DNA of 64,000 nucleotides, taken from Candidatus Obscuribacteraceae bacterium. Lineage in GTDB: Bacteria > Cyanobacteriota > Vampirovibrionia > Obscuribacterales > Obscuribacteraceae. Below, piece by piece: positions 7,627 to 64,000 of the stretch (the first letter of the stretch is position 1; each line of letters opens with the position of its first letter). Position numbers and translations under genes: made by a program. The stretch covers positions 1 to 64,000 of the forward strand of contig JBGAHS010000002.1 of the NCBI GenBank assembly GCA_044226015.1, given 5' to 3'. The notes below the pieces were generated by a model. It was not told where the DNA came from and did no database searches. It saw only the letters and a program-made list of their open reading frames with translations.

Positions 7627-9906
7627 TCAAGCCAATGGTCTTTTGCCGTTGCTCACTGGCTGCTCTCTGGGAAGCTCGAAGAAAAATGTAGAACCTTCTC
7701 CGAGCAATGTCTGAACACCAATATGTCCGTGGTGCTCATCTACGATAGCCTTGCAAATGGCTAGCCCAAGCCCAGTGCCACCTTTGCTGCGCGTGTCTGA
7801 TTGATCTAACTGTTGAAACTTCTGGAAGAGTTTTGAAACGTGGTCTTTCGGAATACCATTTCCATGGTCAACAACTGAAAAGCGCAGCCATTGCGAATCA
7901 ACCCATTCTGTCGTCACTGCGACATCACGACCAGGCGGTGAAAACTTCACTGCATTCGAAATCAAGTTAGTCAAAACTTGCAAAATCCTGTCCTCATCAC
8001 AGGTGACAAGTCCCTCAGCTTGCTGGCTTGAGGTCAGTTGGATGCCAACTTCATCTGCAACACTCTTCATTCCCTCAAGAGCAACCTGCACCAGATGTGA
8101 TGGCTGTACTTCTTGTAGTTTCAATTCAAGTTTTCCAGCTTCGATTTTTCGAATATCCAAAATGTCGTTGATCAAGCGTATCAAGCGATCACATTCTTCG
8201 CGACCAATGTCTACCAGCTGTTTTGCCATCTCAGACAGGTCTCCAGCGACGCCCCCCTGCATAAGACCAAGAGAGGCTCTAATAGAAGTTAGCGGCGTGC
8301 GCAGCTCATGTGACACCATGGAATAGAATTCGCTCACTCGTTTTTCCGCGGTTTTGCGTTCGCTGATATCTCTAAGCACCATGATGCCACCAATCAATTC
8401 ACCCTCGTCATTTCGAAGAGGTCGCCCTGTTGCACTCACCCAGATGCCACTTGGTGCAGCGCTGTTACGAATGAACATTTCATCGCCGTCAACAGAGCCA
8501 CCTTCAATCGCTTTGAAGATTGGAAGTTCCTTTACTGGATAAGCAGCTTTTTTCATCGAGTCATAGATGCCGCAATCTTCTGTCCAATCATGCACCGAAC
8601 CCGTCAAAGTTTCTGGCGCGAAAAATTTCAATGAGGCGGGGTTTGCTTCTGTCACCTGCCCGCTCATATCAACAACTATAATTGCCTCAGCCATGTTAAC
8701 CAGAATTGCATTAAGCTGAGCCTGACTTGAAGCCAACATGTCTTCAAACTGTCGCCGAAAAATGTACTGCCCGAGCTGGCTGCAAATTGTGTTCAGAGTA
8801 TCAAAAACTCTGTCGTCATGGTCGCGTCTTTTTGAACTGTACAACTCAAAAAGAGCAGTCACCTTTCCATCAGTTACGACTGGAATCACGAAGGCAGACA
8901 CCATGCCATCTTTGGACGCCACAGCAACACGCGGATATTGATTTTCCACTGCTTTCAAATCAGAGAGCCAGAGGGCTTCGCCAGATGACCAGACTTTAGA
9001 GGGAAGGTCATCATTTTGTTCAATGCGTAGTGACTGAGAGTGCGGGTAGAGATTCGACAGCAAGATAGACCCATTGTGCCAGTGCGCGGAACATCTCAGC
9101 ACCCCGTCTTCATCAGCCATCCAGCAAGCGCCTGCGTCCCAAAGCATATTTTCACAAACAGTTTTTAGCACTCGACCAATTGTCGAGCTGATATCGTGCA
9201 CTTCCGCAATTGCACGGGCAACATCGAACTGTACGGTGCTTGCACCCTCAATCTTCTCACGTTCAGCCAGATACATATTTGCTGAGAACAACAGCAAAAG
9301 CAAAAGTCCAAGCGAAATTATTCCGAGCAATGCGACAGTCATAATCATTTGCTTGCTGGAATCATTCAGTGAGCCCGTTAACGACGCCAGCAAGCGGCGC
9401 TCTTCCGTGCGCATTTTCTTTACGCAATCGCGAATCTTGTCGGTGAAGCGATTGCCTCTTCCTGATTCAATCTGTTGCAGCGCTAAATTGATCTTTCCTT
9501 GTGAGCGAGCCTCTTTTACTGTTTCAGCAAAGCCAACTTCATTTTTCAATTCAGCAAAAAGTGTATTGATATTTTCGCGTTGGGTTGGGCTATCGTTAGT
9601 TAATTCAGAAAGCCTCTGCACACGCCCACTAAGCTTTCGCACCGCCTCATTGAACGGACCAAGGAAATCTTCGTGGATAATCACGTATCCGCGCTGAGCA
9701 GTTTCAATATCACGAATCTGCGATTCAGTAGCTTCTAACTCAGCCAGCACCTCGTGCGTCAGCGCCACTTGCTGCCCAAGATCGATCAAACGCAACGCAT
9801 GCTCATACGCGACAAAAGCAGCAACAACAACCATGGAAACAGCAACCAGCCCAAGAAAAACCAGGTTGTTTCTAAAACTTGCAATTTTCTTGCTAATAAC
9901 AAACAT
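7627..9906 (-). CDS. Sensor histidine kinase (TM-CHASE3-TM-GAF-PAS-HisKA-HATPase)
   Basis: ETAQRGYVI (CHASE3), SHELRTPLTSI H-box, NLISNAVKF N-box, DHGNGI and GGTGLGLAI G-boxes. Confidence 0.95.
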   Translation of the reverse strand: MFVISKKIASFRNNLVFLGLVAVSMVVVAAFVAYEHALRLIDLGQQVALTHEVLAELEATESQIRDIETAQRGYVIIHEDFLGPFNEAVRKLSGRVQRLSELTNDSPTQRENINTLFAELKNEVGFAETVKEARSQGKINLALQQIESGRGNRFTDKIRDCVKKMRTEERRLLASLTGSLNDSSKQMIMTVALLGIISLGLLLLLLFSANMYLAEREKIEGASTVQFDVARAIAEVHDISSTIGRVLKTVCENMLWDAGACWMADEDGVLRCSAHWHNGSILLSNLYPHSQSLRIEQNDDLPSKVWSSGEALWLSDLKAVENQYPRVAVASKDGMVSAFVIPVVTDGKVTALFELYSSKRRDHDDRVFDTLNTICSQLGQYIFRRQFEDMLASSQAQLNAILVNMAEAIIVVDMSGQVTEANPASLKFFAPETLTGSVHDWTEDCGIYDSMKKAAYPVKELPIFKAIEGGSVDGDEMFIRNSAAPSGIWVSATGRPLRNDEGELIGGIMVLRDISERKTAEKRVSEFYSMVSHELRTPLTSIRASLGLMQGGVAGDLSEMAKQLVDIGREECDRLIRLINDILDIRKIEAGKLELKLQEVQPSHLVQVALEGMKSVADEVGIQLTSSQQAEGLVTCDEDRILQVLTNLISNAVKFSPPGRDVAVTTEWVDSQWLRFSVVDHGNGIPKDHVSKLFQKFQQLDQSDTRSKGGTGLGLAICKAIVDEHHGHIGVQTLLGEGSTFFFELPREQPVSNGKRPLA

Positions 9907-43248: not shown

Positions 43249-46200
43249 CTAAGTGTTCCAGAAGCCTCGGAAAAGGGTTTGCCAATTCTTGCGGAAATCA
43301 TTTCGTGCCATTTCCATCGCTTTTTTCGGAGGAATAGTACTCGGCGACCGGCTGCGATCTCCAGCTCGATTCAATCGAACTCTATAAGAAACATCTGGAA
43401 AAATTTGATATTCAGAAACTCCGACCCATTCGCCACCAGCATATATTTGTAGAGACAAACACAAACCTCTTGTGTCGCCATCTAGCATTTCGGACTCAAC
43501 GATATAAGCAATATCATCGAGCTTCTCAGGTTCTTCCTTTGGTGTCCAAATCGGATCACTCTCTTCAAAACCGATTTTGACCTCGGCGAGATCAGCCTTC
43601 GGAAGCAGATTTTGCTGATGTGAAACTGACTCTATCTTCTCTCCATACGCAGCCGGAACAGGCTCAGACCCTTGTGGTGCTTGTTCGTCTGGACTGAAAT
43701 TCATAGCGGGCTCATCGTTTAGCTCTAGACTTACGTCTTGCAAGTCGACAGCTTCCATTTTCGCAATAGGGTCGAGCTCGATATTTTCGCCACGCAAAAA
43801 ACCATCAGGGTTCTTTTCATAGGCAGCAATCGTCTGGGCGTTCGGCAGCTGAATCTGGTCGCCTCGCTTCAGCTGTGCCAGCGGATTACCTTTCGCATCA
43901 GTATCTAGCGGCAAATCATTTACGTAAGCAAGCAAGCGCCAGTGAGAAGGCTTGTTGTACAGTTTCTGCGCGATACTGCGCAGACCTTCGCCCAACTTAA
44001 CAGCATGCATCGATGCTTTTTCTGAAGCGGCACCACCCATAGCGGCACGAACATTTGCCTTACGCTCATCGTCAGAGGCACTCTTGCTAGAAAACGACCT
44101 GGTCTTCACAGGTCCCTCATCCTTCGCTTCACGATCATTGCCGATGAATTTGCGCATGGCAGTCATTCCTGCTTCCCATGCCTTGAGTTCATCTTCAGCA
44201 GAACCGTATGGAATTTTTCCAAAATTTATATGACCATATGAGCGCGTTGAACGCTTAAATTCATCGATAAACTTCTGGTTTGGAATAGTTATTTTCTGAC
44301 CAGGAAATAGCTTGGCATACTTCTTACCCTGGTAATCATGCAGCATGATCTGTCCACTGCTCTCATTTCTTGCATAAATGATTTGGGCAGTTCTACCAGA
44401 AAATTTGCCAGCAATTGAGTCGAGTGTGTCGCCTTCAGAAACAGTGTAGCTGAACTCTGCATCCTGATACTTTTTAGACTCTTCTTCCTTCCGCTTCTTC
44501 TCTTCTTCTTCCAGCTTTCTGAGACGATCTTTCTCCTTCTCCTCTTCGAGGCGTTCATCTTTCTCTTTTTGTTCTCTGTCTTGCTTTTCCTTGAGCTGTT
44601 GTGTCAACAGTTGCTCTTGTTGTAGCCTGAGCTCATCTTCTTTCTTTCTTCGACCTTCTTCTTCAAGCGACTGCGCAATGGGCTTTCCGTCAGGGGCTTT
44701 AAGATCACTTTGATTGCTTGACTGCAACTCTGCTTTGACCGTAGTCTCCACAACATTCTGACGTACATTCAAAGCCGGTTCATTTCTATCAGCTGGTCTT
44801 TCAGTCAATGCTCGAGTAATTTCGCCCCTGCTGAGCGCGTCTTTCACAACTTCAGAGAAGCGCCCCTTACCTTCGGTTAACTGCTGTATAAGTTCTCGAC
44901 CGCCAAGTTCTTTACCAGCTTCACGATTCGCGCCATCTTTGGCTTGAGAAAGCTGCACACCATCCTTAGTGGCAACATTTTCTTTGAGCATGCCTGCATC
45001 TTTATTTAGATTCATACCCAACTGTTCGCCAGGACGTCCGTCAAGACGTGCGGTCAAACCACGCTCACTCAGCGTGCTTAGGAAGTCTTTGTTTTGCATT
45101 CTCAGAGCCAGCTCTGCTCCAAGTGTGCCAAGTTCTTTAGGGCTCAAGCGGAATTCAGCGGCGCCCTTTTCTCCGAGAGAACGATTGAGAATACTCATCA
45201 GCTCTCTGCCGGGTTCTCGCCCTCCAGCTAGCTGCGTTTCTTTTAGACCTTTTAGAAGATCTTGCAAAATAAATTTGCTTTGCTCTCCAGTCGGAATCTT
45301 ATCTACATACCTGCCCTTCTCGCCAAGTAGATCTAGAACTCGACCAGACACACGGTCACTAGTTTGCAAAAGCTCAAATGCGTTTGATAGGCGTTGTTGA
45401 GTTTTGATATCTAAAGACTTGACATCGAGAGGAAAGCGCCCGCCATCCTGAGACCAACTCTTAAGCGCGCTTAACTGCTCTGGTTTGAGTCCCTTAAAGA
45501 GATCAGCAAGTGCAGCATCCTTCCCAGCTAGCTGCTTTCCTTCCTGAAACTTTGCGATGAGGTCAGCAAACTGCTGTCTCATCTCAGGTGAGCGCCCCAT
45601 GCCCTGCAGCTGTGCAATTAGCTTACCATCGACTTGCATAGATGCCGCTTCAGTTCTAACAGCAGCAGCCTTGTCTCGCATTTCGCCCTGAATAAAATCC
45701 TGCTTGCCAGCAGGATTTCGCCCTGCCGCATCTAAGATTCCCGCATCTTTGCCACCGTCACGAGGCTGGTGCGGACCTCCATCGCTGTGGTCCCCTCGTC
45801 CTTCAGGTCTAACACTCGAGCCGGGATTCTTAGGTGAGCCATCCGCGTTGTAGGCTACCTCGCCCCGCAAAGTGCCGGGCCCGCGCCCTGCATCATTGCT
45901 GGCATCAGGTCTACCAGGATGCGGATTGTATGGTCTCTCTCCCTGCGGCACCGAAAAATCATTTGCGGTTATTGGCTTAGAGGCTAAATCTGGACGAGCT
46001 TGATTCGGTTGAATTTGATTTCCATCGTTGTTACGAGGAATGCCATCATGCGGTCTACCATCGTGAGGACGCGGGTTGCCGTCCCCAGGCGTGCCATCTG
46101 CTCGCGGCACACGAGGCGCTATGCCACCAGGGGTAGCATCAGCTGTGGCGTGTTGATTGTGCGGAGCTTCCGCAGTAACCTGAGTAGCAGCAGCATCGTT

Positions 46201-46878
46201 ATGTGCTGCATTAGCCACACTAGCATCTTTCATCGCAATGGTATTTAGAGCCGCAGGACGTTCACCCTGCACGGGAGCATCTGGCTTAGCAACGGCAGGA
46301 CGATTCTCCAGAACTGGCGTTACTGTGCTACTGGTGTTTACCAATCCGCCTCGTTCCGAACCTCCCCTATCGACGGGCACCGGACGCGCACGTTCAGTTA
46401 GACTTTCAGACCCTCCAGGAGGAGCGGTGAGATTAGTGTTTCTTGGAGCAATACTTTCAACAACGTTGCCATTTTCGACTTTATTAAGGCTGGAAATTTT
46501 TCCGTCCTTATACTCAACGTTGTAGCTCGAAAAAGTTCCGCTTTTGTCAGCGATGAATGCAGTGGTCTGTCCTTCATGCGAACTAAGATAGCCCGAGTAT
46601 TGTTTTCCCGAACTATCCTGAAACTTCAAAGCCTGACCATAGCCCTGTGATTCAGTAGATTGTTTGTAGGAAAGTAATGCAGTGTTGCGATCAGAGAACG
46701 ATGACGGCGGCGCATCATTGGCTTTCTGGGAAAGTTCGATAGGACTGATTTGCTTGGCTTCGGATGGCTGAGCAGCCTGGTCATTCAGCGGCTTGCCGTC
46801 CAAACCCACGCGAGCCCGGCCCATATCATCGACTTTTGGTTCCTGATCTGGTCTAACTTTACTGGGATCCCCTTCCAT
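43249..46878 (-). CDS. Large LysM-domain protein (disordered N-terminus, helical middle, ER/K linker, two LysM-like domains)
   Basis: YTVSEGDTLDSIA...LFPGQKITIP and HAVKLGEGLRSIAQKLY...LKRGDQIQLP; no signal peptide. Confidence 0.82.
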   Translation of the reverse strand: MEGDPSKVRPDQEPKVDDMGRARVGLDGKPLNDQAAQPSEAKQISPIELSQKANDAPPSSFSDRNTALLSYKQSTESQGYGQALKFQDSSGKQYSGYLSSHEGQTTAFIADKSGTFSSYNVEYKDGKISSLNKVENGNVVESIAPRNTNLTAPPGGSESLTERARPVPVDRGGSERGGLVNTSSTVTPVLENRPAVAKPDAPVQGERPAALNTIAMKDASVANAAHNDAAATQVTAEAPHNQHATADATPGGIAPRVPRADGTPGDGNPRPHDGRPHDGIPRNNDGNQIQPNQARPDLASKPITANDFSVPQGERPYNPHPGRPDASNDAGRGPGTLRGEVAYNADGSPKNPGSSVRPEGRGDHSDGGPHQPRDGGKDAGILDAAGRNPAGKQDFIQGEMRDKAAAVRTEAASMQVDGKLIAQLQGMGRSPEMRQQFADLIAKFQEGKQLAGKDAALADLFKGLKPEQLSALKSWSQDGGRFPLDVKSLDIKTQQRLSNAFELLQTSDRVSGRVLDLLGEKGRYVDKIPTGEQSKFILQDLLKGLKETQLAGGREPGRELMSILNRSLGEKGAAEFRLSPKELGTLGAELALRMQNKDFLSTLSERGLTARLDGRPGEQLGMNLNKDAGMLKENVATKDGVQLSQAKDGANREAGKELGGRELIQQLTEGKGRFSEVVKDALSRGEITRALTERPADRNEPALNVRQNVVETTVKAELQSSNQSDLKAPDGKPIAQSLEEEGRRKKEDELRLQQEQLLTQQLKEKQDREQKEKDERLEEEKEKDRLRKLEEEEKKRKEEESKKYQDAEFSYTVSEGDTLDSIAGKFSGRTAQIIYARNESSGQIMLHDYQGKKYAKLFPGQKITIPNQKFIDEFKRSTRSYGHINFGKIPYGSAEDELKAWEAGMTAMRKFIGNDREAKDEGPVKTRSFSSKSASDDERKANVRAAMGGAASEKASMHAVKLGEGLRSIAQKLYNKPSHWRLLAYVNDLPLDTDAKGNPLAQLKRGDQIQLPNAQTIAAYEKNPDGFLRGENIELDPIAKMEAVDLQDVSLELNDEPAMNFSPDEQAPQGSEPVPAAYGEKIESVSHQQNLLPKADLAEVKIGFEESDPIWTPKEEPEKLDDIAYIVESEMLDGDTRGLCLSLQIYAGGEWVGVSEYQIFPDVSYRVRLNRAGDRSRSPSTIPPKKAMEMARNDFRKNWQTLFRGFWNT

Positions 46879-53631: not shown

Positions 53632-54345
53632 TTAGTTAGCCATGGGCTTTGATTGCTGAGCGATTTTTCTGTTCTCAGCGACCTTTTTCACATTGCTCAG
53701 ACGAGTCGCTAGTTTCTTCCCGGCGATGTTCTCAATAAAAGAACGTGGAGCTGGAACACCTATATCAATAAAAGAACCCAATTCGAGAATGGTATTTCCA
53801 TCTACATCAGGTTGGAGAATCCAGCTGCCTTCGACAGCTTTGAAACGATCTGACTTCAACAAGTGATAGTCAATTCTCTTATTAGTTTCTTCTGTACTTT
53901 TCAAAACACAAACGGAAGTACCAAGAACCGGAATCAATTGGAATTTTTGTTCCAGGGTTTGCTCAGTTTTACCGTGCTCATTTTTTCCTTCTTCCAGAAT
54001 CTTGCTATAAGCAAGGTCTGGATCAGACTTACGTTCTTCATGGACAGCTTCCCAAACATCGTGTGGCTGAGCATTGATCTTGATCTTCGCAGTTACCCAA
54101 CGGCGTCCGTTTGGCTTGGGAGCCGTACCGATTACTACCTGACCTTTTGATAGCTTTGCATGCTCTGCTTCGGTAACAACCACCAGCGGTGGCTCAGCCT
54201 TTGTCTCTGTTGTTGGACAGTGAGTTACGTGCTGGGTTTGCACTACATCAGCCGAGTTATTCGCAAGTGCTGGACTCGAACATAAAGACGCGAACGCCAT
54301 CATTACTGCGCCTTTTTTCACATGTTCAACAGTTGATTTCTTCAC
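53632..54345 (-). CDS. SRPBCC/START (polyketide cyclase/dehydrase-like) protein with a signal peptide
   Basis: TAKIKINAQPHDVWEAV, FKAVEGSWILQP and a C-terminal helix; ...SSPALA-N cleavage-like site; GTG at 54345 with GAGGT RBS. Confidence 0.8.
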   Translation of the reverse strand: MKKSTVEHVKKGAVMMAFASLCSSPALANNSADVVQTQHVTHCPTTETKAEPPLVVVTEAEHAKLSKGQVVIGTAPKPNGRRWVTAKIKINAQPHDVWEAVHEERKSDPDLAYSKILEEGKNEHGKTEQTLEQKFQLIPVLGTSVCVLKSTEETNKRIDYHLLKSDRFKAVEGSWILQPDVDGNTILELGSFIDIGVPAPRSFIENIAGKKLATRLSNVKKVAENRKIAQQSKPMAN

Positions 54346-54494
54346 AACACTTACCTCATACCGACTAAAGAATGTACTTGAACGCAGTAACAAACAGCTT
54401 GTTGTTAGTTGTTTGTTCCGTCTTGCTGACAAAAAGGAGAGCGCATCATGCTATACCAGATTGTCGACGAACTTAATTTATGAAGGTTCCTCAT

Positions 54495-55142
54495 TTATAC
54501 TCCGATTGGAATAAACTTGGGAACCAGTCGGCGCCACTTCATCTCTTCGCCATATTGTTTGTATTCAGAGCCCAAACTTTCGAGGAGAAGTTTTTCCTCG
54601 TATTTGGCTCTGTTAAGCCAGAGAGGTGCCACCAAAAATAGAGTCAAGCAAACTGCAAGGGGTGAAAGTGAGGCGAGCGATGCCCCAAGTACACTTTGAA
54701 TAATGCCTGAGTAAGCCGGGTGCATGACGAACTTCAACAATCCATCTTTACGCACCTTATGACCATCGAGTACTTCCGCGTCAGTGGTGAAGCACTCTCC
54801 TAAAGAATACCAGCCACCGATCATAAAAACCAATCCGCTAAAGAACTGAATTACACCCCACCAGCCGATCGGCTGAGCGGCTTCAGGAGCCACAAATGGT
54901 ATCGGACACAGAATCATCGCAAGTGTTCCGCCAATCAAACCAAATTGCGCTAAGAAGCCGAGAATCAGAACGATGACTGTTAGCAGAGTTGAGTATTGCG
55001 GTGCACGTTGAATCAGAAAATTCACTTCGTAAAAGACACCGGTTCCACGTCTCTGAAAACCTTTATATAGAACTGGCGCTGAAAGAAGAGCTCCGATACC
55101 AGCCAGAATTGCCGTGCATATGGTCGGCGGTGAAAGTTGCAT
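54495..55142 (-). CDS. ICMT/PEMT (Ste14) family integral-membrane methyltransferase
   Basis: HKVRKDGLLKFVMHPAYSG and RAKYEEKLL...EYKQY...RLVP. Confidence 0.85.
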   Translation of the reverse strand: MQLSPPTICTAILAGIGALLSAPVLYKGFQRRGTGVFYEVNFLIQRAPQYSTLLTVIVLILGFLAQFGLIGGTLAMILCPIPFVAPEAAQPIGWWGVIQFFSGLVFMIGGWYSLGECFTTDAEVLDGHKVRKDGLLKFVMHPAYSGIIQSVLGASLASLSPLAVCLTLFLVAPLWLNRAKYEEKLLLESLGSEYKQYGEEMKWRRLVPKFIPIGV

Positions 55143-55159
55143 ACGAACCAGGATCCTCC

Positions 55160-55924
55160 CTAGAGATCAAAAAGCGTGTCGTTTAAATCGATATTGAGCT
55201 GGACATCTTTCCAATTTGTATGAGCAAACAGCTTTCCGTCCTTATAATCAAACCACTCGCGTGGTAACAATGTCTGTGGGTCTATGTAAGCGCGCTTCAT
55301 GAGTTCGTCTTTGGACGCACTCGTATAGAGTTCGATTATGTAAACGGGCTTCGGATGACCTTCTACTGTAACAGTCGATTCTGTCACCAAACTTTTCTTG
55401 CCTGCCTTAACAAAGTTAAGCATGACTTGGGACATTCCGTAGAAATCAGAATCAACAAGCGGGTATCCGTTACCTGACCGAACCCATTCAGAATCAGGGT
55501 CAACAGTTGCTACAAATTTCGACATCAAACCGCCGAGATGCCCTTTGACCTTTCCGTTCTTTAACAGAACTGCACACGAACCTTTCTTAAAAGGTCCCAA
55601 CTCCTCTGCGCGAATCTGACGAGGACGCTTGTAATAAAACTTACTGTTCTCTTCGATCGACTTTCCACCTTTGTAGACCGTCATGTGAGATTGAAATGTA
55701 TAGGACTTCAGCTGATCGGCAGCGTCTGCCATTTCTTTGAGAAAATCGGCGCCATCACGCATGCGCTCTTGAGTTTGTCCAGCTGCGGCTGAAACTGAAG
55801 TTGCTTTGTCTGGAACGCGGGTCGGCAGCTGGGTGCTTTCTGCAAGACCTGGATTGAGCAAACTCAACGCGAAAGTGGCAAGACTGATTTGCAGTAATCT
55901 GGAGAACCTGGTTCTAAAGTGCAT
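55160..55924 (-). CDS. Secreted LolA-like (DUF1571 / lipoprotein-sorting type) protein
   Basis: Signal peptide; LKSYTF, FYYKRPRQIR, AYIDPQTLLP, WKDVQLNIDLNDTLFDL beta-rich LolA-fold pattern. Confidence 0.72.
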   Translation of the reverse strand: MHFRTRFSRLLQISLATFALSLLNPGLAESTQLPTRVPDKATSVSAAAGQTQERMRDGADFLKEMADAADQLKSYTFQSHMTVYKGGKSIEENSKFYYKRPRQIRAEELGPFKKGSCAVLLKNGKVKGHLGGLMSKFVATVDPDSEWVRSGNGYPLVDSDFYGMSQVMLNFVKAGKKSLVTESTVTVEGHPKPVYIIELYTSASKDELMKRAYIDPQTLLPREWFDYKDGKLFAHTNWKDVQLNIDLNDTLFDL

Positions 55925-56134
55925 CTGTATTGACTCTTGGTTTGGAGCTCAGTGTGAATAACCGGTTATATCTGGATATTAGGACCAAAAAAGGAAGTTC
56001 AGTTAACGAGACTTTCCCCTTTGCTAGCTTCCGCATGATTATGCCATGACTGCAAAAGCACGTTCCTTAGAGGTACTTGATGTTGCCAAGATCCGCCAGC
56101 GATGGCGCGGATTGAGCGCTGCGATAAAACTTAA

Positions 56135-56830
56135 CTAATTGGATCGTGCTCCCACGATCGATTCTTTCGGACACTCCCAGAGTGCAAGCGTCGCATCAAG
56201 AACCTCTTGGGCAGCCTCAGGAATTTGCTCACCGTGGGTCTCATTCAAATCGTCCAGCATACGCTTCATCCAGATGGCGTGGCGCATATGCGTTCTTGCA
56301 TGCAAGCGAACCCACTCTAACCCCTGGCTGATAAGCGCCGGCTCATATTCAGCTGCATGTTTTTCAAAATATTTTTCGCAACTCGGCAAAGCGGCGCGAC
56401 AATACATCGTCGCGGCCAGTTCGGCGGCAACTATGGAATGAATGCCCTCTGCAAAAGTCTTCCGGGTGCACATTTCAGTCATCACATCGCAAAGGTTCTT
56501 AGTCACAGGGCCCACCGGCGCTGCTTCGACCTCTTCTAAAGTGACGCCAGCAAGAGGAAATTGGTGCAAGAAAAGACCCTGATATTTACTTTCGTCATCG
56601 CTGAGACGATTCAGAAGCTGAGAAGCTGCGCTCATTTCAGGTGGCAAGGCATCCCTTACAGTACGAATGTTCTGTGGCAGCTCTTTCATAAAAGGCCAGA
56701 GGACGAAGATTATTTTTCGTCCACGTTCTCTGAATTTGCCATCAGCCAGGTCGATAAACCAGGGACTGACCGAGCAGCCCCAGCTTAGTCTTTCTATCAA
56801 AACTGGCATCCAACCTGGCAGAGACCCCAT
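56135..56830 (-). CDS. Heme-oxygenase-like diiron oxidase (UndA/TenA/CADD superfamily) with atypical ligands
   Basis: LWPFMKE, DDESKY, AAELAA and GLEWVRLHARTHMRH align by eye with the UndA-type ExxH...E...HxxxDxxH layout. Confidence 0.72.
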   Translation of the reverse strand: MGSLPGWMPVLIERLSWGCSVSPWFIDLADGKFRERGRKIIFVLWPFMKELPQNIRTVRDALPPEMSAASQLLNRLSDDESKYQGLFLHQFPLAGVTLEEVEAAPVGPVTKNLCDVMTEMCTRKTFAEGIHSIVAAELAATMYCRAALPSCEKYFEKHAAEYEPALISQGLEWVRLHARTHMRHAIWMKRMLDDLNETHGEQIPEAAQEVLDATLALWECPKESIVGARSN

Positions 56831-57062
56831 CTAACCCTTTTCTTCCTCGCAACACACACTAAATGCGAAACTCTACTTTACCGCAGAGCAGTTAAGTCAT
56901 GGCATGGACGAAGCGCATTGCTTAACCCTTTTCAATGTTTTAAAGAAAGAAAGTTTCGCGAAAGGTTCCTTCGCTTGACCTCTTTTTACAAATTCGGAAC
57001 CCTGCTTCATCTCGTAGCCTTTGCTCTTTATGCTTTTCGCCACCCTTGATAGAATTCTAAAG

Positions 57063-57956
57063 ATGACAGTAAGCAGGCAAAACAAAACTGAACCATTCGT
57101 ATCTAACACTTTGACCAGGGTCGAGTCCGCAGATGGAACAGAAAATTTGATACGCGTTTGGGAAGCCACGGCTCCAGACGCCTTCGTTCTGTACTTACAC
57201 GGCATTGAAGGTCATAGTTTGTGGTTCGATGAGAGTGCGAGTTTTTTAGCTAAGCACGGAATAAGCACCTTCGCGCTTGATCGCCGCGGCTCAGGATGCA
57301 GCAAGGAAGCACGCGGTGATGCAAAAGATCCTCAGCAACTTCTGAATGATGTGCGGGCGGCGCTTAGATTCGCACGAGAAAAGTCCGCAAGAAAGCCACT
57401 CTTCCTGATGGCAAATTGCTGGGGCGCAAAACTTGCCGCAATTTTAGCGGAGAGGCAAAATCCAGAATCGCAGATGCTAGCAGGGCTGGTACTCAGTTCG
57501 CCAGCTATCGAAGTGAAGGTCGACCTTTCTTTCCAGGAAAAGCTGCAGGTAGCCTGGCGACTCTTGCTCGGCAATCGCGATCCGCTTCCACTGCCGCTAA
57601 AGGTTGAAGATTTCACGAACAACCCTGTTTATTTGAAATACATCGCAGAAGACACAAAGCGCCTGACCACAGCAACTGCTCGATTTTTGTTTTGCACTAT
57701 GCTCTTGACGAAAATGAGTCAACGCAGCGCAGAGAAAATAACGCTGCCGACACTTGTGTTGCAATCAGGAATTGACACCATAGTTGATGAGCCTGGCATC
57801 AAGAAATGGTTTGAGCGATTGGCTGCAAGCGATAAAAAATTTGTCTTATATCCTGAGGTGCACCACAGCCTCGACTTTGATGCGAATCCGCATGCCTACA
57901 GAGAAACACTGCTTGATTGGCTGCAAGAGCATTTGAAGGAGCATAAGCAGCCGTGA
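57063..57956 (+). CDS. Alpha/beta hydrolase (lysophospholipase-like) with a Cys at the nucleophile elbow
   Basis: LHGIEGH, DRRGSG, ANCWG, GIDTIV, HHSLDFD. Confidence 0.88.
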   Translation: MTVSRQNKTEPFVSNTLTRVESADGTENLIRVWEATAPDAFVLYLHGIEGHSLWFDESASFLAKHGISTFALDRRGSGCSKEARGDAKDPQQLLNDVRAALRFAREKSARKPLFLMANCWGAKLAAILAERQNPESQMLAGLVLSSPAIEVKVDLSFQEKLQVAWRLLLGNRDPLPLPLKVEDFTNNPVYLKYIAEDTKRLTTATARFLFCTMLLTKMSQRSAEKITLPTLVLQSGIDTIVDEPGIKKWFERLAASDKKFVLYPEVHHSLDFDANPHAYRETLLDWLQEHLKEHKQP

Positions 57957-59164
57957 GAATTCGTTCAATTGAAACCTTCAAGATAACTCTTCCTTTTCGC
58001 TTCGCGTTTGGACACTCGCTTGCCACGCGCGCCGAGTCCCGAAATCTGATCGTGAAAGTAACACTTGCCAATGGAATTTGCGGCTATGGCGAGAGCGTAC
58101 CGAGAGACTATGTCACAGGTGAAACGGTTGAACAGGCAGAAGATAACGTGCTGCTGAACTATGCACCAGCACTGCAGAAAACGTCATTTGATGACCCCAA
58201 AAAGCTTCTGAGCACCCTGAGCGAAACTTTCTTTTCGATGGGGCTTGATGACAAAATGCAAGGGGCATCATGGTGCGCACTCGAGCTAGCATTCTTAGAC
58301 GCTTGCAGCAGATTGCACGAGATGCAGCTTCATCAGCTCATTGGCACCCACAAGCAAGATAAGATTCGCTATGGCGGAACAGTTCCGTTTGGAAAGAAGA
58401 AAGCGCTTCAAGCAATTCTGAACTTCTATAAGATTTATGGCTTTGAAACTGTCAAACTAAAAGTCGGAGCAGCCAAGCTTGAAGATGACGTGGAGAAAGT
58501 GAAGTTGGCTCGCAGCATTCTAGGTGCAAATCGGAAGATTCGCGTAGATGCAAACTGTGCCTGGACACTGGATGAAGCGCTCAGAGCAGCTGAAGCATTC
58601 AGACCATACGGCATTCTTTCCTATGAACAACCCCTGCCAGCAAATAAATGGGACGAACTCAAAAAGCTTAGCGAGCAAATTGAAGAAGATGTTTTACTCG
58701 ATGAGTCTTTATGCACATTGAGGCAAGCAAGCGAACTAGCTAGCAACAGAATTTGCGATGCGTTCAACGTGCGCGTATCGAAGGCAGGAGGCATCTTTGC
58801 TTCGCAGAAAATGATTGATATTGCGTTGAATGCAAATCTGAAAGTTCACCTCGGGGCACAGGTTGGCGAAAGCGGAATTCTCAGCGCAGCTGCAAGACAC
58901 TTAGCTTTGACAAACGAGAAAATGGAAAATTATGAAGGGTCAGCAAACTTTTTTCTGCTGAAGAAAGACATCTGCAAAGAGAATCTAAATGCTGGACTCG
59001 GCGGTTTCGGTGACCTTCGTTTTGCAGCTAAGACTGGCGGTACCGGAATAAACATAATTGACAAAAATCTGAATTCGATGACTGATTCTTGTGATGAGAG
59101 TCAGGCAGATGCGATAACCCCCCGGGTCCAAAATCAAGGATCCTTGAGCCCAAAAGCGAGGTAA
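57953..59164 (+). CDS. Enolase-superfamily enzyme, muconate-lactonizing-enzyme subgroup
   Basis: GYGESVP, KLKVG, RVDAN, YEQP, LDES, NVRVSKAGG; GTGA overlap with the upstream gene. Confidence 0.9.
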   Translation: MRIRSIETFKITLPFRFAFGHSLATRAESRNLIVKVTLANGICGYGESVPRDYVTGETVEQAEDNVLLNYAPALQKTSFDDPKKLLSTLSETFFSMGLDDKMQGASWCALELAFLDACSRLHEMQLHQLIGTHKQDKIRYGGTVPFGKKKALQAILNFYKIYGFETVKLKVGAAKLEDDVEKVKLARSILGANRKIRVDANCAWTLDEALRAAEAFRPYGILSYEQPLPANKWDELKKLSEQIEEDVLLDESLCTLRQASELASNRICDAFNVRVSKAGGIFASQKMIDIALNANLKVHLGAQVGESGILSAAARHLALTNEKMENYEGSANFFLLKKDICKENLNAGLGGFGDLRFAAKTGGTGINIIDKNLNSMTDSCDESQADAITPRVQNQGSLSPKAR

Positions 59165-59166
59165 TT

Positions 59167-60858
59167 GTGGCGTTCAATCCTTACATTTTCATAGGGCAGT
59201 GTTATCGCGAGTTGACCCATATCAAAAAGTTCAAACAAGCGCTTTCTCGTCCGAGACAGGCTCAAGAAGAGAAACTGTTGAGCATTATTCGCCAGAACGA
59301 AAACACAGACTTTGGCAGGAAGCATCGTTTCTCTGAGATACGCAACATTCAGGACTTCCAGAGACTGGTGCCTCCAAACACTTACGAGACCCTTGAGCCA
59401 TACATAGAAAAGTCCATGGCGGGAGAGAGAAATCAGCTTACGACGGAGAAGCCGCTTATGTTTGCCACTACCAGTGGCACCACAGGCAAGCCCAAATACA
59501 TTCCCATAACTCCAACACACCTGAAGGACTACACCCACGCGTTTCACATTCACAACTGGGGAATGATTAAAGACAACCCTGAAGCGGTGCACCACCCAGG
59601 CGGACGTTACCTCATCTTCAATTCAAATGACGAAGAAGGTTTCACTAAAGATGGTACTCCATTTGGTGCCGTCTCTGGCTTGCTTCGCCGCAAACAATCT
59701 CCTCTTGTTCAGCGCTACATCGCACTGCCTTCACTGGTTAGCAGAATCAAAGACGTCGAATCAAAGTACTACACGATTTTAAGACTTTCACTGGTTCAAG
59801 ACATTATCGCTATTACGAGTTGCAACCCGTCAACACTTCTTCTGCTGGCAGATCAGTTGCAAGAACACGCGGCAAGCTTGATAAAAGATATCAATGACGG
59901 AACCCTGGCAAAATTCGTGAAACCGGGCGCAGATGTTGCCCAGGAATTGAGTACTTACTTGAAAGCTGACCCGGCGTGCGCAAAGCGGCTGTCTTCAATT
60001 CTAGAGAAAAAAGGCGAATTACTTCCAAGCGAAGCATGGCCAAACTTAAGAATAATAAGCGTCTGGAAGGGTGGTCCGATGCCTTTCTATCTCAAGAAGC
60101 TTCCAGAAAAATTTGGCAACATTCCATTTAGAGACTTTGGCTATATGGCCAGTGAAGGCAGAGGCACCATTCCACTGAAAGACGACGGAGCAGGTGGCGT
60201 GGCAGCTTTAACTTCTCACTTCTTTGAATTTGTGCCGGAAGAAGACGAAGGAAAAGAAGAAAGACGTTTTCTCACCTTAGACCAGCTCGAATTGGGCAAA
60301 CGCTATTTCATTCATTTCACAACCGCAGCGGGACTTTACAGATACAACATCAATGACTTGATGGAGGTCGTAGGCTTTGAGGAAAAGACTCCAATCCTTC
60401 AATTTGTTCAAAAAGGAATGGGCATTAGTTCCATCACTGGCGAAAAATTGACTGAAGAACAAGTCTCTGTCGCCTTGCAGTATGCAATCAGACAGCACAG
60501 CCTGGACCAGATTGATCATTTCATACTGGCAGTCGAGTTGGCTGACGTTCCGTATTACAAAGGATACGTTGAGAACTCTGGAGAGCTGCCTGAGTCTGTG
60601 CTCAGCGCCATGGCTCGAACAATCGACCTTTCTCTACAATTACAGAATATAGAGTACAAGGACAAACGCGAGTCCATGCGCCTTGCTCCTATTCAGTTAG
60701 TCGAGGTTCCGCGCGGAACTTTCAAACGACTCAGACAGCAGCGAGTTCATGATGGCGCACCAGAAGCTCAAGTAAAGATACCGTTTCTTACAAACAACAG
60801 CAGATTCAGCCAAGATATTGCTAAACTGACGAACGCAGAACTTGCACTACAGGTCTAG
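59167..60858 (+). CDS. GH3-family acyl-adenylate / amido synthetase
   Basis: NENTDFGRKH, FATTSGTTGKPKYIP, GYMASEG, GLYRYNINDL, GEKLTE, QVKIP. Confidence 0.93.
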   Translation: MAFNPYIFIGQCYRELTHIKKFKQALSRPRQAQEEKLLSIIRQNENTDFGRKHRFSEIRNIQDFQRLVPPNTYETLEPYIEKSMAGERNQLTTEKPLMFATTSGTTGKPKYIPITPTHLKDYTHAFHIHNWGMIKDNPEAVHHPGGRYLIFNSNDEEGFTKDGTPFGAVSGLLRRKQSPLVQRYIALPSLVSRIKDVESKYYTILRLSLVQDIIAITSCNPSTLLLLADQLQEHAASLIKDINDGTLAKFVKPGADVAQELSTYLKADPACAKRLSSILEKKGELLPSEAWPNLRIISVWKGGPMPFYLKKLPEKFGNIPFRDFGYMASEGRGTIPLKDDGAGGVAALTSHFFEFVPEEDEGKEERRFLTLDQLELGKRYFIHFTTAAGLYRYNINDLMEVVGFEEKTPILQFVQKGMGISSITGEKLTEEQVSVALQYAIRQHSLDQIDHFILAVELADVPYYKGYVENSGELPESVLSAMARTIDLSLQLQNIEYKDKRESMRLAPIQLVEVPRGTFKRLRQQRVHDGAPEAQVKIPFLTNNSRFSQDIAKLTNAELALQV

Positions 60859-60865
60859 GAAAGAA

Positions 60866-61909
60866 ATGCAAACACAAAAGGTTCTTGTAACCGGCGCAAG
60901 CGGGATGGTTGGCTATCACACGGTGAAAGGGCTGCTCAGCCAGGGGCATGAAGTCACAGCTCTGATTAGACCCTCGAGCAACGATAGTGAGCTAAAAAAT
61001 CTCAAAGGAAACCTGTGGATTAAGAGAGCGGAGCTCAATGATGAAAACGCGTTGCGTCTCGCGCTGAAAGACAGCGACATCGTAATTCATGCCGCAGGCA
61101 TGGTAGACCCACATGCGAAGCGCGAGCAAATCTTCGAAGTAAATGTTGAGTGCACAAAGACCCTTCTTTCTCTGGCTGACGCCGCCAATGTCAAGCATTT
61201 CATTCATATTAGCAGCCTCTCAGTAATCACGGGACAGGGCGATTTGCACGGCGCAAGCGAGGACATGCCGCTGGTATATTGCGGCGAATCTTACGCAGAC
61301 TCCAAAGTTGATGCAGAAAAAGCAGTAACCATGTTTTTCGGTCGTGGCAGTATGATGGTCAGCATTCTGCGACCGGGTTTCATTTATGGCCCCATGGAAA
61401 AAGCATGGATGCCGCGCCTCATCGAAAACTTGCGCACAAGAAAAGCGATGCTTATTGATGGCGGAATTAAGCAAACCAACGTTATTTACGTCGACAATCT
61501 ATTCTCCGCAATAAGCCTGTCAATGCTAAACCCCAAAGCGGATAAGCAAGTTTTCAATCTCACAGATGGTGAGATTGTGACAAAGAAGGAGCTTTTCGAT
61601 GCCATTTGTGATGGCATGGGTTTCAAAAGAATCAACAAAGAAGTTCCGGGTTGGCTCGCTAAGGCTGCCTGTGAGGTGGTTTCATGCATCGCCCCTTATC
61701 TTCCAGAAGATTCGAGAAAAGGACTTTCACGTTTTTCAAGAGCCGCATTCAGGCTGGCTGGCGTCAATCAAGGCTTCGACATCAGCAAAGCAGAACGCGT
61801 TCTCGGCTATACCCAACGAATTCCATTTGGTGAAGGTATGCGCGTGACAGTTGAGTACTTTAAGAAGAACACAGCCGCGAGCAATCGCGATAAAGCAGCT
61901 GTAAAATAA
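60866..61909 (+). CDS. Extended SDR, NAD-dependent epimerase/dehydratase (3-beta-HSD-like)
   Basis: LVTGASGMVG, HAAG, HISS, YADSK, LRPGFIYGP. Confidence 0.92.
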   Translation: MQTQKVLVTGASGMVGYHTVKGLLSQGHEVTALIRPSSNDSELKNLKGNLWIKRAELNDENALRLALKDSDIVIHAAGMVDPHAKREQIFEVNVECTKTLLSLADAANVKHFIHISSLSVITGQGDLHGASEDMPLVYCGESYADSKVDAEKAVTMFFGRGSMMVSILRPGFIYGPMEKAWMPRLIENLRTRKAMLIDGGIKQTNVIYVDNLFSAISLSMLNPKADKQVFNLTDGEIVTKKELFDAICDGMGFKRINKEVPGWLAKAACEVVSCIAPYLPEDSRKGLSRFSRAAFRLAGVNQGFDISKAERVLGYTQRIPFGEGMRVTVEYFKKNTAASNRDKAAVK

Positions 61910-61940
61910 GCAGACCAAGAACTCACGCGGAGTTAAAAAG

Positions 61941-62243
61941 ATGTCGGTTCTTCAACCTGTCGCAGACTTTGTGGTCGATTACATCGGTCGCCACAAGCAT
62001 CCGGTTAACGCGTTCTTACACATCTTCGGCGTGCCCATGGTTTTCTATGGTGTCTACAAGCTCTTTTGTGGGGAAAGTGAGCTTGCAATGGCTTGGACTC
62101 TAATAGTGTTTGGCTATGTGCTTCAATATCTGGGTCACAAGGCACAAGGCAACGAAGTGGGCGAGGTCACCCTCATCAAGAAAATTTGGAAAAAACTGGC
62201 GAAGAAAAATTCCGGCATAGAAGAGAGCGGCGCAAATGAGTGA
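61941..62243 (+). CDS. DUF962/Mpo1-like small membrane protein
   Basis: HKHPVNAFLHIFGVP...LQYLGHKAQGN. Confidence 0.8.
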   Translation: MSVLQPVADFVVDYIGRHKHPVNAFLHIFGVPMVFYGVYKLFCGESELAMAWTLIVFGYVLQYLGHKAQGNEVGEVTLIKKIWKKLAKKNSGIEESGANE

Positions 62244-63159
62244 ACAAAATCAGATCATCGCAGTGGACGGAGCTAGTGGATATGTCGGCAGCCACCTTAT
62301 CCACGCTTTATGCAAAAGTGGTGTCCGTGTTAGAGCAATCGTCCATCCTAAAGCTAACCTTTCGGACTGCCAGTTTCTCTCGGAATGCGGCGCCGAGATT
62401 TACAAAACCGACATTGATGCCAATTCGCCAACTCTGATAGACGCACTGACGGGAGCAAGCACCGTCATACATTTAATTGGAAGCATCGCTCCGAAAAAAG
62501 GGCAGAAACTTGAAGAGCTTCATGCAGGCATAACGCAGCAACTCGTAAAAGCAGCACAAAGCACTAACACTAAGATTTTGATGATTACGGCACTGGGCAC
62601 ATCAGCTGACGCCCTCAGCCAATATCACAAGACAAAATGGCAAGCAGAAGAGCTTGTTCGCAAGAGCGGATTGCCCTACACAATTCTTCGACCATCACTG
62701 ATTTTAGGCAGACAGGTTGGAAGACGTGACAGCAAGTTGATGGCACGATATATCGAGCTGATCAAAACAAGACCTAAAGTACCTCTTCTTGGGGGAGGCA
62801 AAAATCTACTGCAGCCGGTTTTCATCGGTGACTTAAGCCGCGCAATTTCAAAGCTTGCATTGAGTCAGGAAATGACTGGAAAGACTCTAGAAATTGGCGG
62901 TGCCGAAGTTCTTTCAATGCAAGAACTGGTGAGCAAGCTGATGGATGCTATCGGCAAACGCAAGCCACTGCAGCCGGTGCCTCCTGCTTTAGCGAATATC
63001 TTAGCCAGCGTGTTGGAGCTGGTGCAATCAGTTCCGATGGTAAGCAAAGACCAGGTGAAACTATCAACGACTGACAATATTTGCAGTGACAACGCACTGG
63101 AAAATCAACTTGCCTTAACACCAACGCCATTGGCTAAGGCACTGGCTACTTACAGATAG
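62236..63159 (+). CDS. Atypical SDR, NDUFA9-like NAD(P)H-binding protein
   Basis: VDGASGYVG, VIHLIG, YHKTKWQAE, ILRPSLI, LQPVFIGD. Confidence 0.88.
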   Translation: MSEQNQIIAVDGASGYVGSHLIHALCKSGVRVRAIVHPKANLSDCQFLSECGAEIYKTDIDANSPTLIDALTGASTVIHLIGSIAPKKGQKLEELHAGITQQLVKAAQSTNTKILMITALGTSADALSQYHKTKWQAEELVRKSGLPYTILRPSLILGRQVGRRDSKLMARYIELIKTRPKVPLLGGGKNLLQPVFIGDLSRAISKLALSQEMTGKTLEIGGAEVLSMQELVSKLMDAIGKRKPLQPVPPALANILASVLELVQSVPMVSKDQVKLSTTDNICSDNALENQLALTPTPLAKALATYR

Positions 63160-63172
63160 ATTGGAGTCAATT

Positions 63173-64000
63173 GTGCCAGCAGTACTAGTAACAGGGGCAA
63201 GCGGATTTCTGGGAGCACGACTGTGCGAACGACTTCACGAAATGGGTGTAGAAGTCAAAACATTCGGGCGCCAGGCTGCGCAAACCGAGCGATTAAATCG
63301 TCTGGCAATACCGCATGTTCAGGGCGATATCTGCGATCTTGACTCATTCAAAAAAGCACTGGTTGACGTAGGCGCTGTTTTCCACCTTGCAGGACTGGTT
63401 TCTTATCGCCGATGCGACTATGACTTGCTCTATAAAATAAATGTTTTAGGGACACGCAATGTAATGAAAGCCTGCCTTGAAGCAAATGTTCAAAGAGTGA
63501 TCAACATGGGCTCAATTGCTGGTATGGGAATTCCTGAGCCAGGCAAGCTTGGAACCGAAGAAATTGAATATAACTTGAAGGGTCACGGGCTGCACTATTG
63601 CGATACCAAATTCGAAGCAGAGCAAGAAGCATTAAGGGTTGCAAAACAAGGACTGAATGTCCTGTCACTTAACCCTGGTATCACATTTGGTGAAGGAGAC
63701 ACGCACCCTCACCACCATACTATTTTCAGATCAATGCTGAGCGGGTGGTTCATAGGCTATCCCGCCGGTGGAGTTATGTTTTCTGACATTGAAGATGTAG
63801 TTTCTACCTGCATCGCTAGCCTCAGCAGAGGACAGGCCGGGCAGAGATATGTGATCGGAACTGCAAACCTTAGCTTTAAAGAGGCTGGCGATATGTTAGC
63901 GACAGTTCTGAATGGACGCAAACCAATTTTTCAAATACCAGGTTGGCTGGCTGAGTCAGCAGGTGTAGTTTGCGAAACTGTCTTTCCTTTGTTTAAAATG
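63173..64000 (+). CDS. Extended SDR (dihydroflavonol reductase / HpnA-like), truncated by the window edge
   Basis: Not in the ORF track. GTG at 63173 after GGAG; VLVTGASGFLG, VFHLAGLVS, INVLGTRNV, YCDTKFEAE; open to the end of the window. Confidence 0.9.
   Translation, partial: MPAVLVTGASGFLGARLCERLHEMGVEVKTFGRQAAQTERLNRLAIPHVQGDICDLDSFKKALVDVGAVFHLAGLVSYRRCDYDLLYKINVLGTRNVMKACLEANVQRVINMGSIAGMGIPEPGKLGTEEIEYNLKGHGLHYCDTKFEAEQEALRVAKQGLNVLSLNPGITFGEGDTHPHHHTIFRSMLSGWFIGYPAGGVMFSDIEDVVSTCIASLSRGQAGQRYVIGTANLSFKEAGDMLATVLNGRKPIFQIPGWLAESAGVVCETVFPLFKM

Follow-up and report, generated by a model that had tools for sequence, protein, structure and literature searches.

Introduction

The starter unit of borrelidin is trans-cyclopentane-1,2-dicarboxylate (PMC6697708), and in Singulisphaera acidiphila a GH3 enzyme and an alpha/beta hydrolase (OlsH and OlsI) make ornithine lipid, their genes forming one operon with a methyltransferase gene (OlsG) and the encoded enzymes having shown activities (PMC12493201). 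Here, these systems are compared with a divergent two-arm operon at the end of a 64,000-nucleotide stretch of DNA (the window) from contig JBGAHS010000002.1 of a Candidatus Obscuribacteraceae bacterium (assembly GCA_044226015.1; host genome G000, 92% complete, cluster on contig C1). The rightward arm encodes, in this order, an alpha/beta hydrolase, an enolase-superfamily enzyme, a GH3 enzyme, a short-chain dehydrogenase/reductase (SDR1), an Mpo1/DUF962 protein, SDR2 and SDR3, and the leftward arm encodes a protein of the heme-oxygenase-like diiron oxidase (HDO) fold, a LolA-like protein, an ICMT-type methyltransferase and an SRPBCC protein. For borrelidin, Olano et al. reportedly found in 2004 that borE, borF and borL are needed for the starter unit, and proposed BorE as the cyclase; we know of no biochemical demonstration of how the cyclopentane ring is closed. 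Plant jasmonate biosynthesis follows a related logic of lipase, oxidase, cyclase, reductase, GH3 and methyltransferase, in which the GH3 enzyme (JAR1/GH3.11) is homologous to that of the window while the other steps use unrelated folds, making it an analogy and not a case of membership.

Homology of the hydrolase–enolase–GH3 trio to borrelidin proteins

The window cluster is a real, family-wide variant of the BorE/BorF/BorL-type module, free of polyketide synthase (PKS) genes and equipped with its own tailoring genes. The best plasmid match of the window GH3 lies in a Streptomyces run encoding a PKS, a P450, an aminotransferase, a dehydrogenase, the GH3, an F420 reductase, an FAH-family protein and thrS. 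This GH3 shares a 90% sequence cluster with CAE45676.1 (S. parvulus), as the P450 of the same run does with CAE45673.1; we take the S. parvulus run to be the part of the borrelidin cluster from borI to borO, and its GH3 to be BorL. BorL-like GH3s were found in 51 of the 401 genomes of the genus sample. The bor-type cluster of genome G619 has a PKS loading module facing genes for a CoA transferase, a thiamine diphosphate (ThDP) enzyme, a Hydrolase_4 protein, an enolase and two SDRs, and its enolase shares 79% identity with the representative of the sequence cluster holding Q70I06 (P0457). The latter is probably BorE, judging by accession order, and the bor gene names used here rest on accession order together with cluster anatomy.

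When these proteins were compared with the whole of G000, using P0338 (CAE45676.1) as BorL and the G619 orthologue instead of the S. parvulus protein as BorF, their best matches were three adjacent genes, those of the window trio. The sole match of BorE was the window enolase (E 4e-27, 28% identity), BorL matched the window GH3 first (8e-64, 31% identity, compared with 1e-47 for a paralogue), and the BorF-like protein matched the window hydrolase first (3e-23, 30% identity, the next match being at 3e-5). Furthermore, the window enolase and BorE have H21, R26, R51, R274 and E328 in common, none of which occurs in three ordinary outgroups from the enolase family; together with the KxK motif and the D/E/D metal ligands, the window enolase thus carries the complete BorE signature. 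In a FastTree phylogeny of 46 rows that included the three outgroups, the branch to the outgroups (support 95) left the BorE-type enolases and the window enolase together on one side. The borrelidin cluster and the window also have adjacent SDR genes in common. The initial annotation had stated that the cluster matches no known pathway, which no longer holds, since the trio matches borF, borE and borL, and the pairing of GH3 with a hydrolase recalls OlsH/OlsI (PMC12493201).

A contiguous GH3, hydrolase and enolase run was present in 11 of the 18 actinomycete GH3 loci fetched, located beside FAH, AfsA, ATP-grasp or major facilitator superfamily (MFS) genes. One such run (L325:4496-17440, G770) is accompanied by genes for AfsA, a HAD phosphatase, an aldo-keto reductase and a ThDP enzyme, and resembles a cluster for a signalling molecule or a small-ring antibiotic. 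The BorL-like gene of G785 was set aside as a remnant lacking a BorE-type enolase. Plasmid searches returned only distant enolases, and no GH3 relative was confirmed among 26 pattern matches on viral contigs. Literature searches on the roles of the bor genes found no paper describing them, the "BorL" of PMC13386636 being the name of a linker and not of the gene.

Active sites of the enolase, GH3, hydrolase and SDRs

The window enolase retains K168-x-K170 and the three metal ligands (D199/E225/D250), while R274 aligns with the second catalytic Lys of the Bacillus subtilis dipeptide epimerase. An Arg occupies this position in all 27 local orthologues, and across 151 aligned sequences, obtained by a search that did not select for the residue, it was Arg in 133 and Lys in 16. 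According to one preprint, racemases and epimerases in the subgroup named after muconate lactonizing enzyme (MLE) need the second Lys as a base, while in the dehydration catalysed by o-succinylbenzoate synthase the same Lys makes only a cation-pi contact (bioRxiv 10.1101/2022.03.03.481873). The Lys expected at the end of strand 6 in a dipeptide epimerase or N-acylamino acid racemase is thus missing from the window enolase, and an epimerase reading was rejected on the basis of R274. Replacement by Arg of a residue that racemases and epimerases use as a base instead suggests one-base chemistry, that is, ring closure or elimination. The best NCBIfam model for the enolase, muconate cycloisomerase TIGR02534, scored 142 bits, below its cut-off of 335.

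The window GH3 has the N, M and C domains and all three nucleotide-binding motifs intact, the motifs being compared with those given in PMC12493201, and its top match among solved structures is JAR1 (E 8e-36). It is not an OlsH, as it scored 116 bits against the OlsH model NF052613 (cut-off 620), though it may work in a partly OlsH-like manner. In a quick IQ-TREE phylogeny of 77 of the 161 GH3s, the OlsH-like GH3s of planctomycetes and Bacteroidota split off with a branch support of 100, this side of the tree consisting of proxies that score up to 441 bits, none of them over the cut-off, with true OlsH left out. On the other side of the branch were the enolase-linked GH3s, the second GH3 paralogue and BorL.

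The nucleophile elbow of the hydrolase carries a Cys in 26 of 26 orthologues, and the Asp and His of the triad are invariant in all 34 aligned sequences. Glycine-rich and YxxxK motifs are kept in all three SDRs. An OleABCD-type olefin pathway, considered because the best match of SDR1 is OleD, was rejected: SDR1 scored 126 against a cut-off of 580, and the cluster encodes no OleA, a negative that covers the cluster and not the genome, which was not searched for OleA.

Conservation in the Obscuribacteraceae

Conservation was assessed in 29 loci of the host family, 25 of which were chosen via GH3 matches and four via enolase matches, with one cut by a contig end. The hydrolase, enolase, SDR1, Mpo1 and SDR3 genes were present in every locus, GH3 and SDR2 in 28, ICMT in 27, the LolA-like and SRPBCC genes in 25, and HDO, the gene most often lost, in 20. 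The gene order was kept across the family loci, and the arrangement of the cluster is therefore not due to chance. The enolase was found in 32/32 genomes of the family, 2/2 of the sister family and 1/2 of a third family, and in none of the 114 other genomes of the class. The borrelidin cluster, in contrast, is a sporadic antibiotic cluster.

The GH3 gene itself is missing from the operon of G022 (98% complete), where only the second GH3 paralogue was found, and no GH3 was found anywhere in G037 (94% complete), which nonetheless keeps hydrolase, enolase, SDR1, Mpo1 and SDR2. The count of GH3 in 36 of 36 genomes includes matches to the second paralogue, the only type in G022. An amide product, as originally proposed, is accordingly not assured, since the operon occurs without GH3 in these two genomes and the borrelidin starter has no amide. 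Taken together, it is the hydrolase–enolase pair and GH3 that form the core of the operon, and not the HDO.

In G029 the cluster is split over two loci (L043 and L058) with a duplicated GH3, giving hydrolase-enolase-GH3-SDR1-Mpo1-SDR3 and SRPBCC-ICMT-GH3-SDR2. The second GH3 paralogue of the host genome (L059:9155-10957 (+), G000:C11) is divergent to a gene for a GT21/HpnI-like glycosyltransferase (7806-9095 (-)), and a similar pair is present in G030, G038 and G039; the two may form a separate pathway to a glyco-amide lipid. In G021 the second paralogue is divergent to a 2698-aa open reading frame (ORF) (L067:8721-18608).

The module in other phyla

The enolase subfamily is large, comprising 480 representatives at E values up to 1e-30, and the five long enolase matches examined were three hydrolase–enolase and two HDO–enolase fusions. 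Two scans of enolase loci were made, and in neither do relatives count as independent cases. An HDO fusion served as lead for the genome scan, which covered the best 80 of 576 confirmed loci and is biased to this lead and its search pattern, while the metagenome scan, led by a hydrolase fusion, covered the best 80 of 572 loci and is likewise biased by lead sequence and pattern. In the genome scan, a GH3 lay within 2.5 kb of the enolase in 70 of the 80 loci (53 of the 60 with room for one on both flanks), an HDO in 54, an ICMT in 10, and hydrolase and SDR1 in two. These loci came from Chloroflexota, Binatia, Nitrospirota, Cyanobacteriota, Actinomycetota, Omnitrophota, Lentisphaerota, Myxococcota and others. 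The metagenome scan recovered the hydrolase in 44 of 80 loci, GH3 in 25 (10 of the 21 with room), SDR1 in six and Mpo1 in one; Mpo1 lies near the enolase in the high-GC locus L166. Co-occurrence of the genes in other genomes, proposed as a check in the initial annotation, was observed both in the preserved order within the family and in the pairing of GH3 with enolase across many phyla.

The neighbours of the distant versions include lipid-handling proteins (Aas, an LpxL-like acyltransferase, FadL, MMPL and patatin), in agreement with the earlier suggestion of a conserved pathway independent of PKS and non-ribosomal peptide synthetases in a lipid-handling setting. Other recurrent neighbours are oxidases (P450, flavin monooxygenase, cupin) and FAH or CocE hydrolases. 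Some enolases have no GH3 in the locus; in L143, L149, L150, L153, L154, L157, L160 and L162 the enolase follows an LpxL-like acyltransferase without any GH3, often with a FadL-type porin downstream. The PKS-free module occurs in the cultured cyanobacteria Calothrix PCC 7716, Calothrix PCC 7103 and Leptolyngbya PCC 6406. Many filamentous cyanobacteria carry HDO-enolase-GH3 (L108, L116, L119-L133, L139, L146); the genes that come next often encode a 150-aa protein matching no Pfam family and a CocE hydrolase. A further version, found in L072, L109, L122, L134, L135, L141, L145, L147 and L159, contains an ICMT and a protein of 440-460 aa that matches neither Pfam nor NCBIfam, sometimes with a weak FkbO/Rid-like protein. 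The G046 copy of this ICMT-type version groups with Lentisphaerota, which suggests transfer. Literature searches, with most subscription journals outside their coverage, found no paper on the GH3–hydrolase–enolase module.

HDO-fold and LolA-like proteins of the left arm

The predicted structure of the HDO-fold protein (predicted local distance difference test score 91) had PSPTO1738, UndA and CADD as its top Foldseek matches (TM-scores 0.65-0.75), so that the model supports a heme-oxygenase-like fold. Like UndA and CADD, the protein has E80, E137, H177 and usually H184, the ligand set of these enzymes being Glu/His/Glu/His/Asp/His. However, the sequence alignment showed that the His of the UndA E-x-x-H motif is Tyr in 18 of 19 orthologues, that the position of the Asp ligand is His in 11, Asn in six and Gln in one, and that the last His is Gln in three; the full diiron set is absent from the window protein. 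In addition, no HDO match was obtained in 12 of the 23 genomes searched, including G011, G022 and G074 (96-98% complete), and the named homologues among 58 HDO matches were of the Obscuribacterales type. The enolase-fused HDOs of other phyla keep the canonical ligands and are only remotely similar to the window protein (hhalign probability 27.7%).

These results contradict the view that the cluster is built around an UndA-like diiron enzyme: the resemblance to UndA stands for the fold and fails for the ligand set, and the protein is probably an optional accessory that is either non-catalytic or binds a single metal. The product of the LolA-like gene is a secreted protein with a weak LolA assignment: among 20 orthologues, two matched Pfam LolA (best E 0.0015) and eight DUF1571, and no solved structure was matched. 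That the cluster contains non-canonical active sites, as initially noted, is evident from the Cys nucleophile of the hydrolase, the Arg-for-Lys exchange of the enolase and the degenerate HDO site.

Operon layout

Eleven ORFs were placed and stranded as first described, with the corresponding Pfam families (Table 1). The two divergent arms and the tight coupling of the rightward one were verified, with intergenic distances of -4, 2, -17, 31, -8 and 1 bp. The left arm is looser, with 210 bp between the HDO and LolA-like genes followed by 17 and 62 bp. The rightward arm had been thought to continue off the window; SDR3 does cross the edge, but the arm ends just beyond it, at the SDR3 stop (G000:C1:64174). 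The next gene begins 27 bp on, encodes a protein without Pfam match and is present in 3 of the 29 family loci. The region past the operon (G000:C1:64202-67247) encodes a secreted protein of 301 aa, a secreted Ser hydrolase and a protein with a thioredoxin domain, kept in 3, 8 and 6 of the 29 loci, respectively, and upstream, outside the operon, the window encodes a 1209-aa low-complexity protein (43249-46878, minus strand).

Table 1. Features of the divergent operon, with positions in the window
Feature	Position	Strand	Basis
SRPBCC/START-fold protein, signal-peptide-like N-terminus (by eye), likely lipid carrier	53632..54432	-	PF10604 above cut-off; 25/29 family loci
ICMT/PEMT-type membrane methyltransferase	54495..55142	-	PF04140, PF04191; four transmembrane-like segments; 27/29 loci
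Secreted DUF1571/LolA-like protein, weak assignment	55160..55924	-	25/29 loci
Heme-oxygenase-like fold protein (UndA/CADD fold), incomplete diiron site; family-specific, optional	56135..56830	-	Model, Foldseek, ligand census, distribution
Divergent intergenic region, presumed promoters	56831..57020	.	190 bp between arms
Alpha/beta hydrolase, Cys133-Asp252-His282 triad, BorF-like	57021..57956	+	PF12146; start may be ATG at 57063
MLE-subgroup enolase-superfamily enzyme, BorE type	57953..59164	+	K168-x-K170, D199/E225/D250, R274 (second Lys position), E328, H21/R26/R51
GH3 acyl-adenylating enzyme, BorL-like, not OlsH	59167..60858	+	All three nucleotide motifs
Extended SDR1, YxxxK intact	60842..61909	+	Best NCBIfam OleD, below cut-off
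Mpo1/DUF962 protein, 100 aa	61941..62243	+	PF06127; 29/29 loci
Atypical SDR2, YxxxK intact	62236..63159	+	Pfam/NCBIfam; 28/29 loci
Extended SDR3, HpnA/SdmB-like below cut-off	63161..64000, runs to G000:C1:64174	+	29/29 loci

Proposed pathway and alternatives

A plausible explanation, which we hold tentatively, is that the operon makes a ring-containing acyl lipid by means of a PKS-free BorE/BorF/BorL-type core. We infer the reactions, their order and the product from gene content, conservation, fusions, active-site residues and homology to the borrelidin proteins. In this scheme, GH3 would adenylate a carboxylic acid, and the Cys hydrolase would accept the acyl group as a thioester before transferring or releasing it. 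Ring closure would then fall to the enolase, acting on an enolate bound to Mg2+ and most likely giving a five-membered carbocycle, with K170 as the single Lys base, R274 steadying the enolate and E328 as the acid. The three SDRs could reduce keto or ene groups, Mpo1 could shorten a 2-hydroxy acid by one carbon, ICMT could methylate the product, and the SRPBCC and LolA-like proteins may carry it in the envelope.

Several observations weigh against this proposal. The identities to BorE, BorL and the BorF-like protein are only 28-31%, the BorE-type Streptomyces enolases form a branch of their own in the FastTree phylogeny, and the branch of BorL is long and lies outside the core clade of enolase-linked GH3s. 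The nucleophile of the BorF-like protein is Ser and not Cys as in the window hydrolase, and the window operon adds Mpo1, extended SDRs, ICMT and carrier proteins to what is found for borrelidin. Moreover, none of the borrelidin starter partners (PKS loading module, ThDP enzyme, CoA transferase, F420 reductase and FAH) is encoded in the window cluster, the trio of G000 thus standing without the neighbours of the bor type. The operon also persists without GH3 in G022 and G037, and dehydration or lactonisation would also fit one-base chemistry. Finally, BorE is a cyclase only by a reported proposal, and we know of no assay of the enzyme.

An unlikely alternative is an amino lipid of the OlsH/OlsI kind, in which GH3 would form an N-acyl amino acid, the Cys hydrolase would add a second acyl group, the enolase would dehydrate the head group or a 3-hydroxy acyl chain, and ICMT would methylate in the manner of OlsG. 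The S. acidiphila operon, which combines GH3, hydrolase and methyltransferase of shown activity (PMC12493201), offers a precedent; the window GH3 motifs are intact, and near-universality in the family is what would be expected of a membrane-lipid pathway. The low OlsH model score and the position of the OlsH-like GH3s in a different clade, across a fully supported branch, nevertheless argue against it, as do the retention of the operon without GH3 in G022 and G037, the three SDRs and Mpo1 that the window has in addition, and the lack of any mention of an enolase in the accessible part of PMC12493201. Slightly less probable is a catabolic or recycling route, where an oxidised lipid or ring-fission acid would be activated, lactonised by the MLE-like cycloisomerase, opened by the Cys enzyme in the way of a dienelactone hydrolase, and shortened by Mpo1. 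A Cys nucleophile is indeed the dienelactone hydrolase pattern, Mpo1 is degradative in yeast, muconate cycloisomerase is the closest NCBIfam model of the enolase, albeit below cut-off, and FAH-family genes flank several metagenome versions; yet the actinomycete trio sits in biosynthetic settings (PKS, AfsA, ATP-grasp and MFS neighbours), the operon has neither an uptake system nor a dedicated regulator, and the presence of methyltransferase and carrier-type genes is more in keeping with synthesis. Tailoring of hopanoids or sphingolipids is highly improbable, despite the HpnA-like SDR3, the HpnI-like glycosyltransferase beside the second GH3 and the HpnH-like radical SAM (DUF3463) or squalene-cyclase-like neighbours of some metagenome enolase loci: no squalene-hopene cyclase match was obtained in G000 (92% complete), and none of the three strongest matches to the alpha-oxoamine synthase (AOS) family matched best as serine palmitoyltransferase. 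It is therefore largely refuted for G000, unless the genes are in sequence missing from the assembly.

Whichever reading of the right arm applies, the left arm could be merely a conserved neighbour belonging to a separate pathway, which we consider somewhat unlikely. The unrelated neighbour gene ppx is kept nearby in 23 of the 29 family loci, and synteny alone therefore does not tie the two arms together; the left arm is also lost wholly or partly while the right arm stays, the window HDO is remote from the enolase-fused HDOs, and the ICMTs of distant loci are about 30% identical (L072). On the other hand, the enolases of other phyla are repeatedly accompanied by HDO-fold and ICMT genes (54/80 and 10/80, in an HDO-biased sample), the second GH3 copy in L058 of G029 is kept together with SRPBCC, ICMT and SDR2, and five HDO matches (G005, G018, G021, G028 and G036) could be placed on the same contig as a GH3 match at a distance of about 4 kb or less.

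A bolder extension of the BorE-type proposal, which must be regarded as quite doubtful, is that these enolases are stand-alone carbocyclases spanning phyla. Their partners would be a hydrolase, reductases, GH3, a methyltransferase and an oxidase of exchangeable type (HDO, P450, flavin monooxygenase, cupin or Mpo1), and the products, formed by a jasmonate-like logic, would be acyl-amino acid lipids or signals that bear a cyclopentane. The product of the window operon would be such a compound, a family-wide lipid of the Obscuribacteraceae, and the borrelidin starter pathway would be a borrowed copy.

Implications

The link to a known biosynthetic cluster gives a widespread GH3–enolase module a concrete candidate reaction type and substrate class, and the BorE-type reading would replace the "epimerase" annotation usual for these enzymes. 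The PKS-free versions, in the window operon as well as in cultured cyanobacteria, make the question of borrelidin ring closure testable. For the Obscuribacteraceae themselves, the proposal predicts that this uncultured lineage related to cyanobacteria would have an unusual lipid throughout the family.

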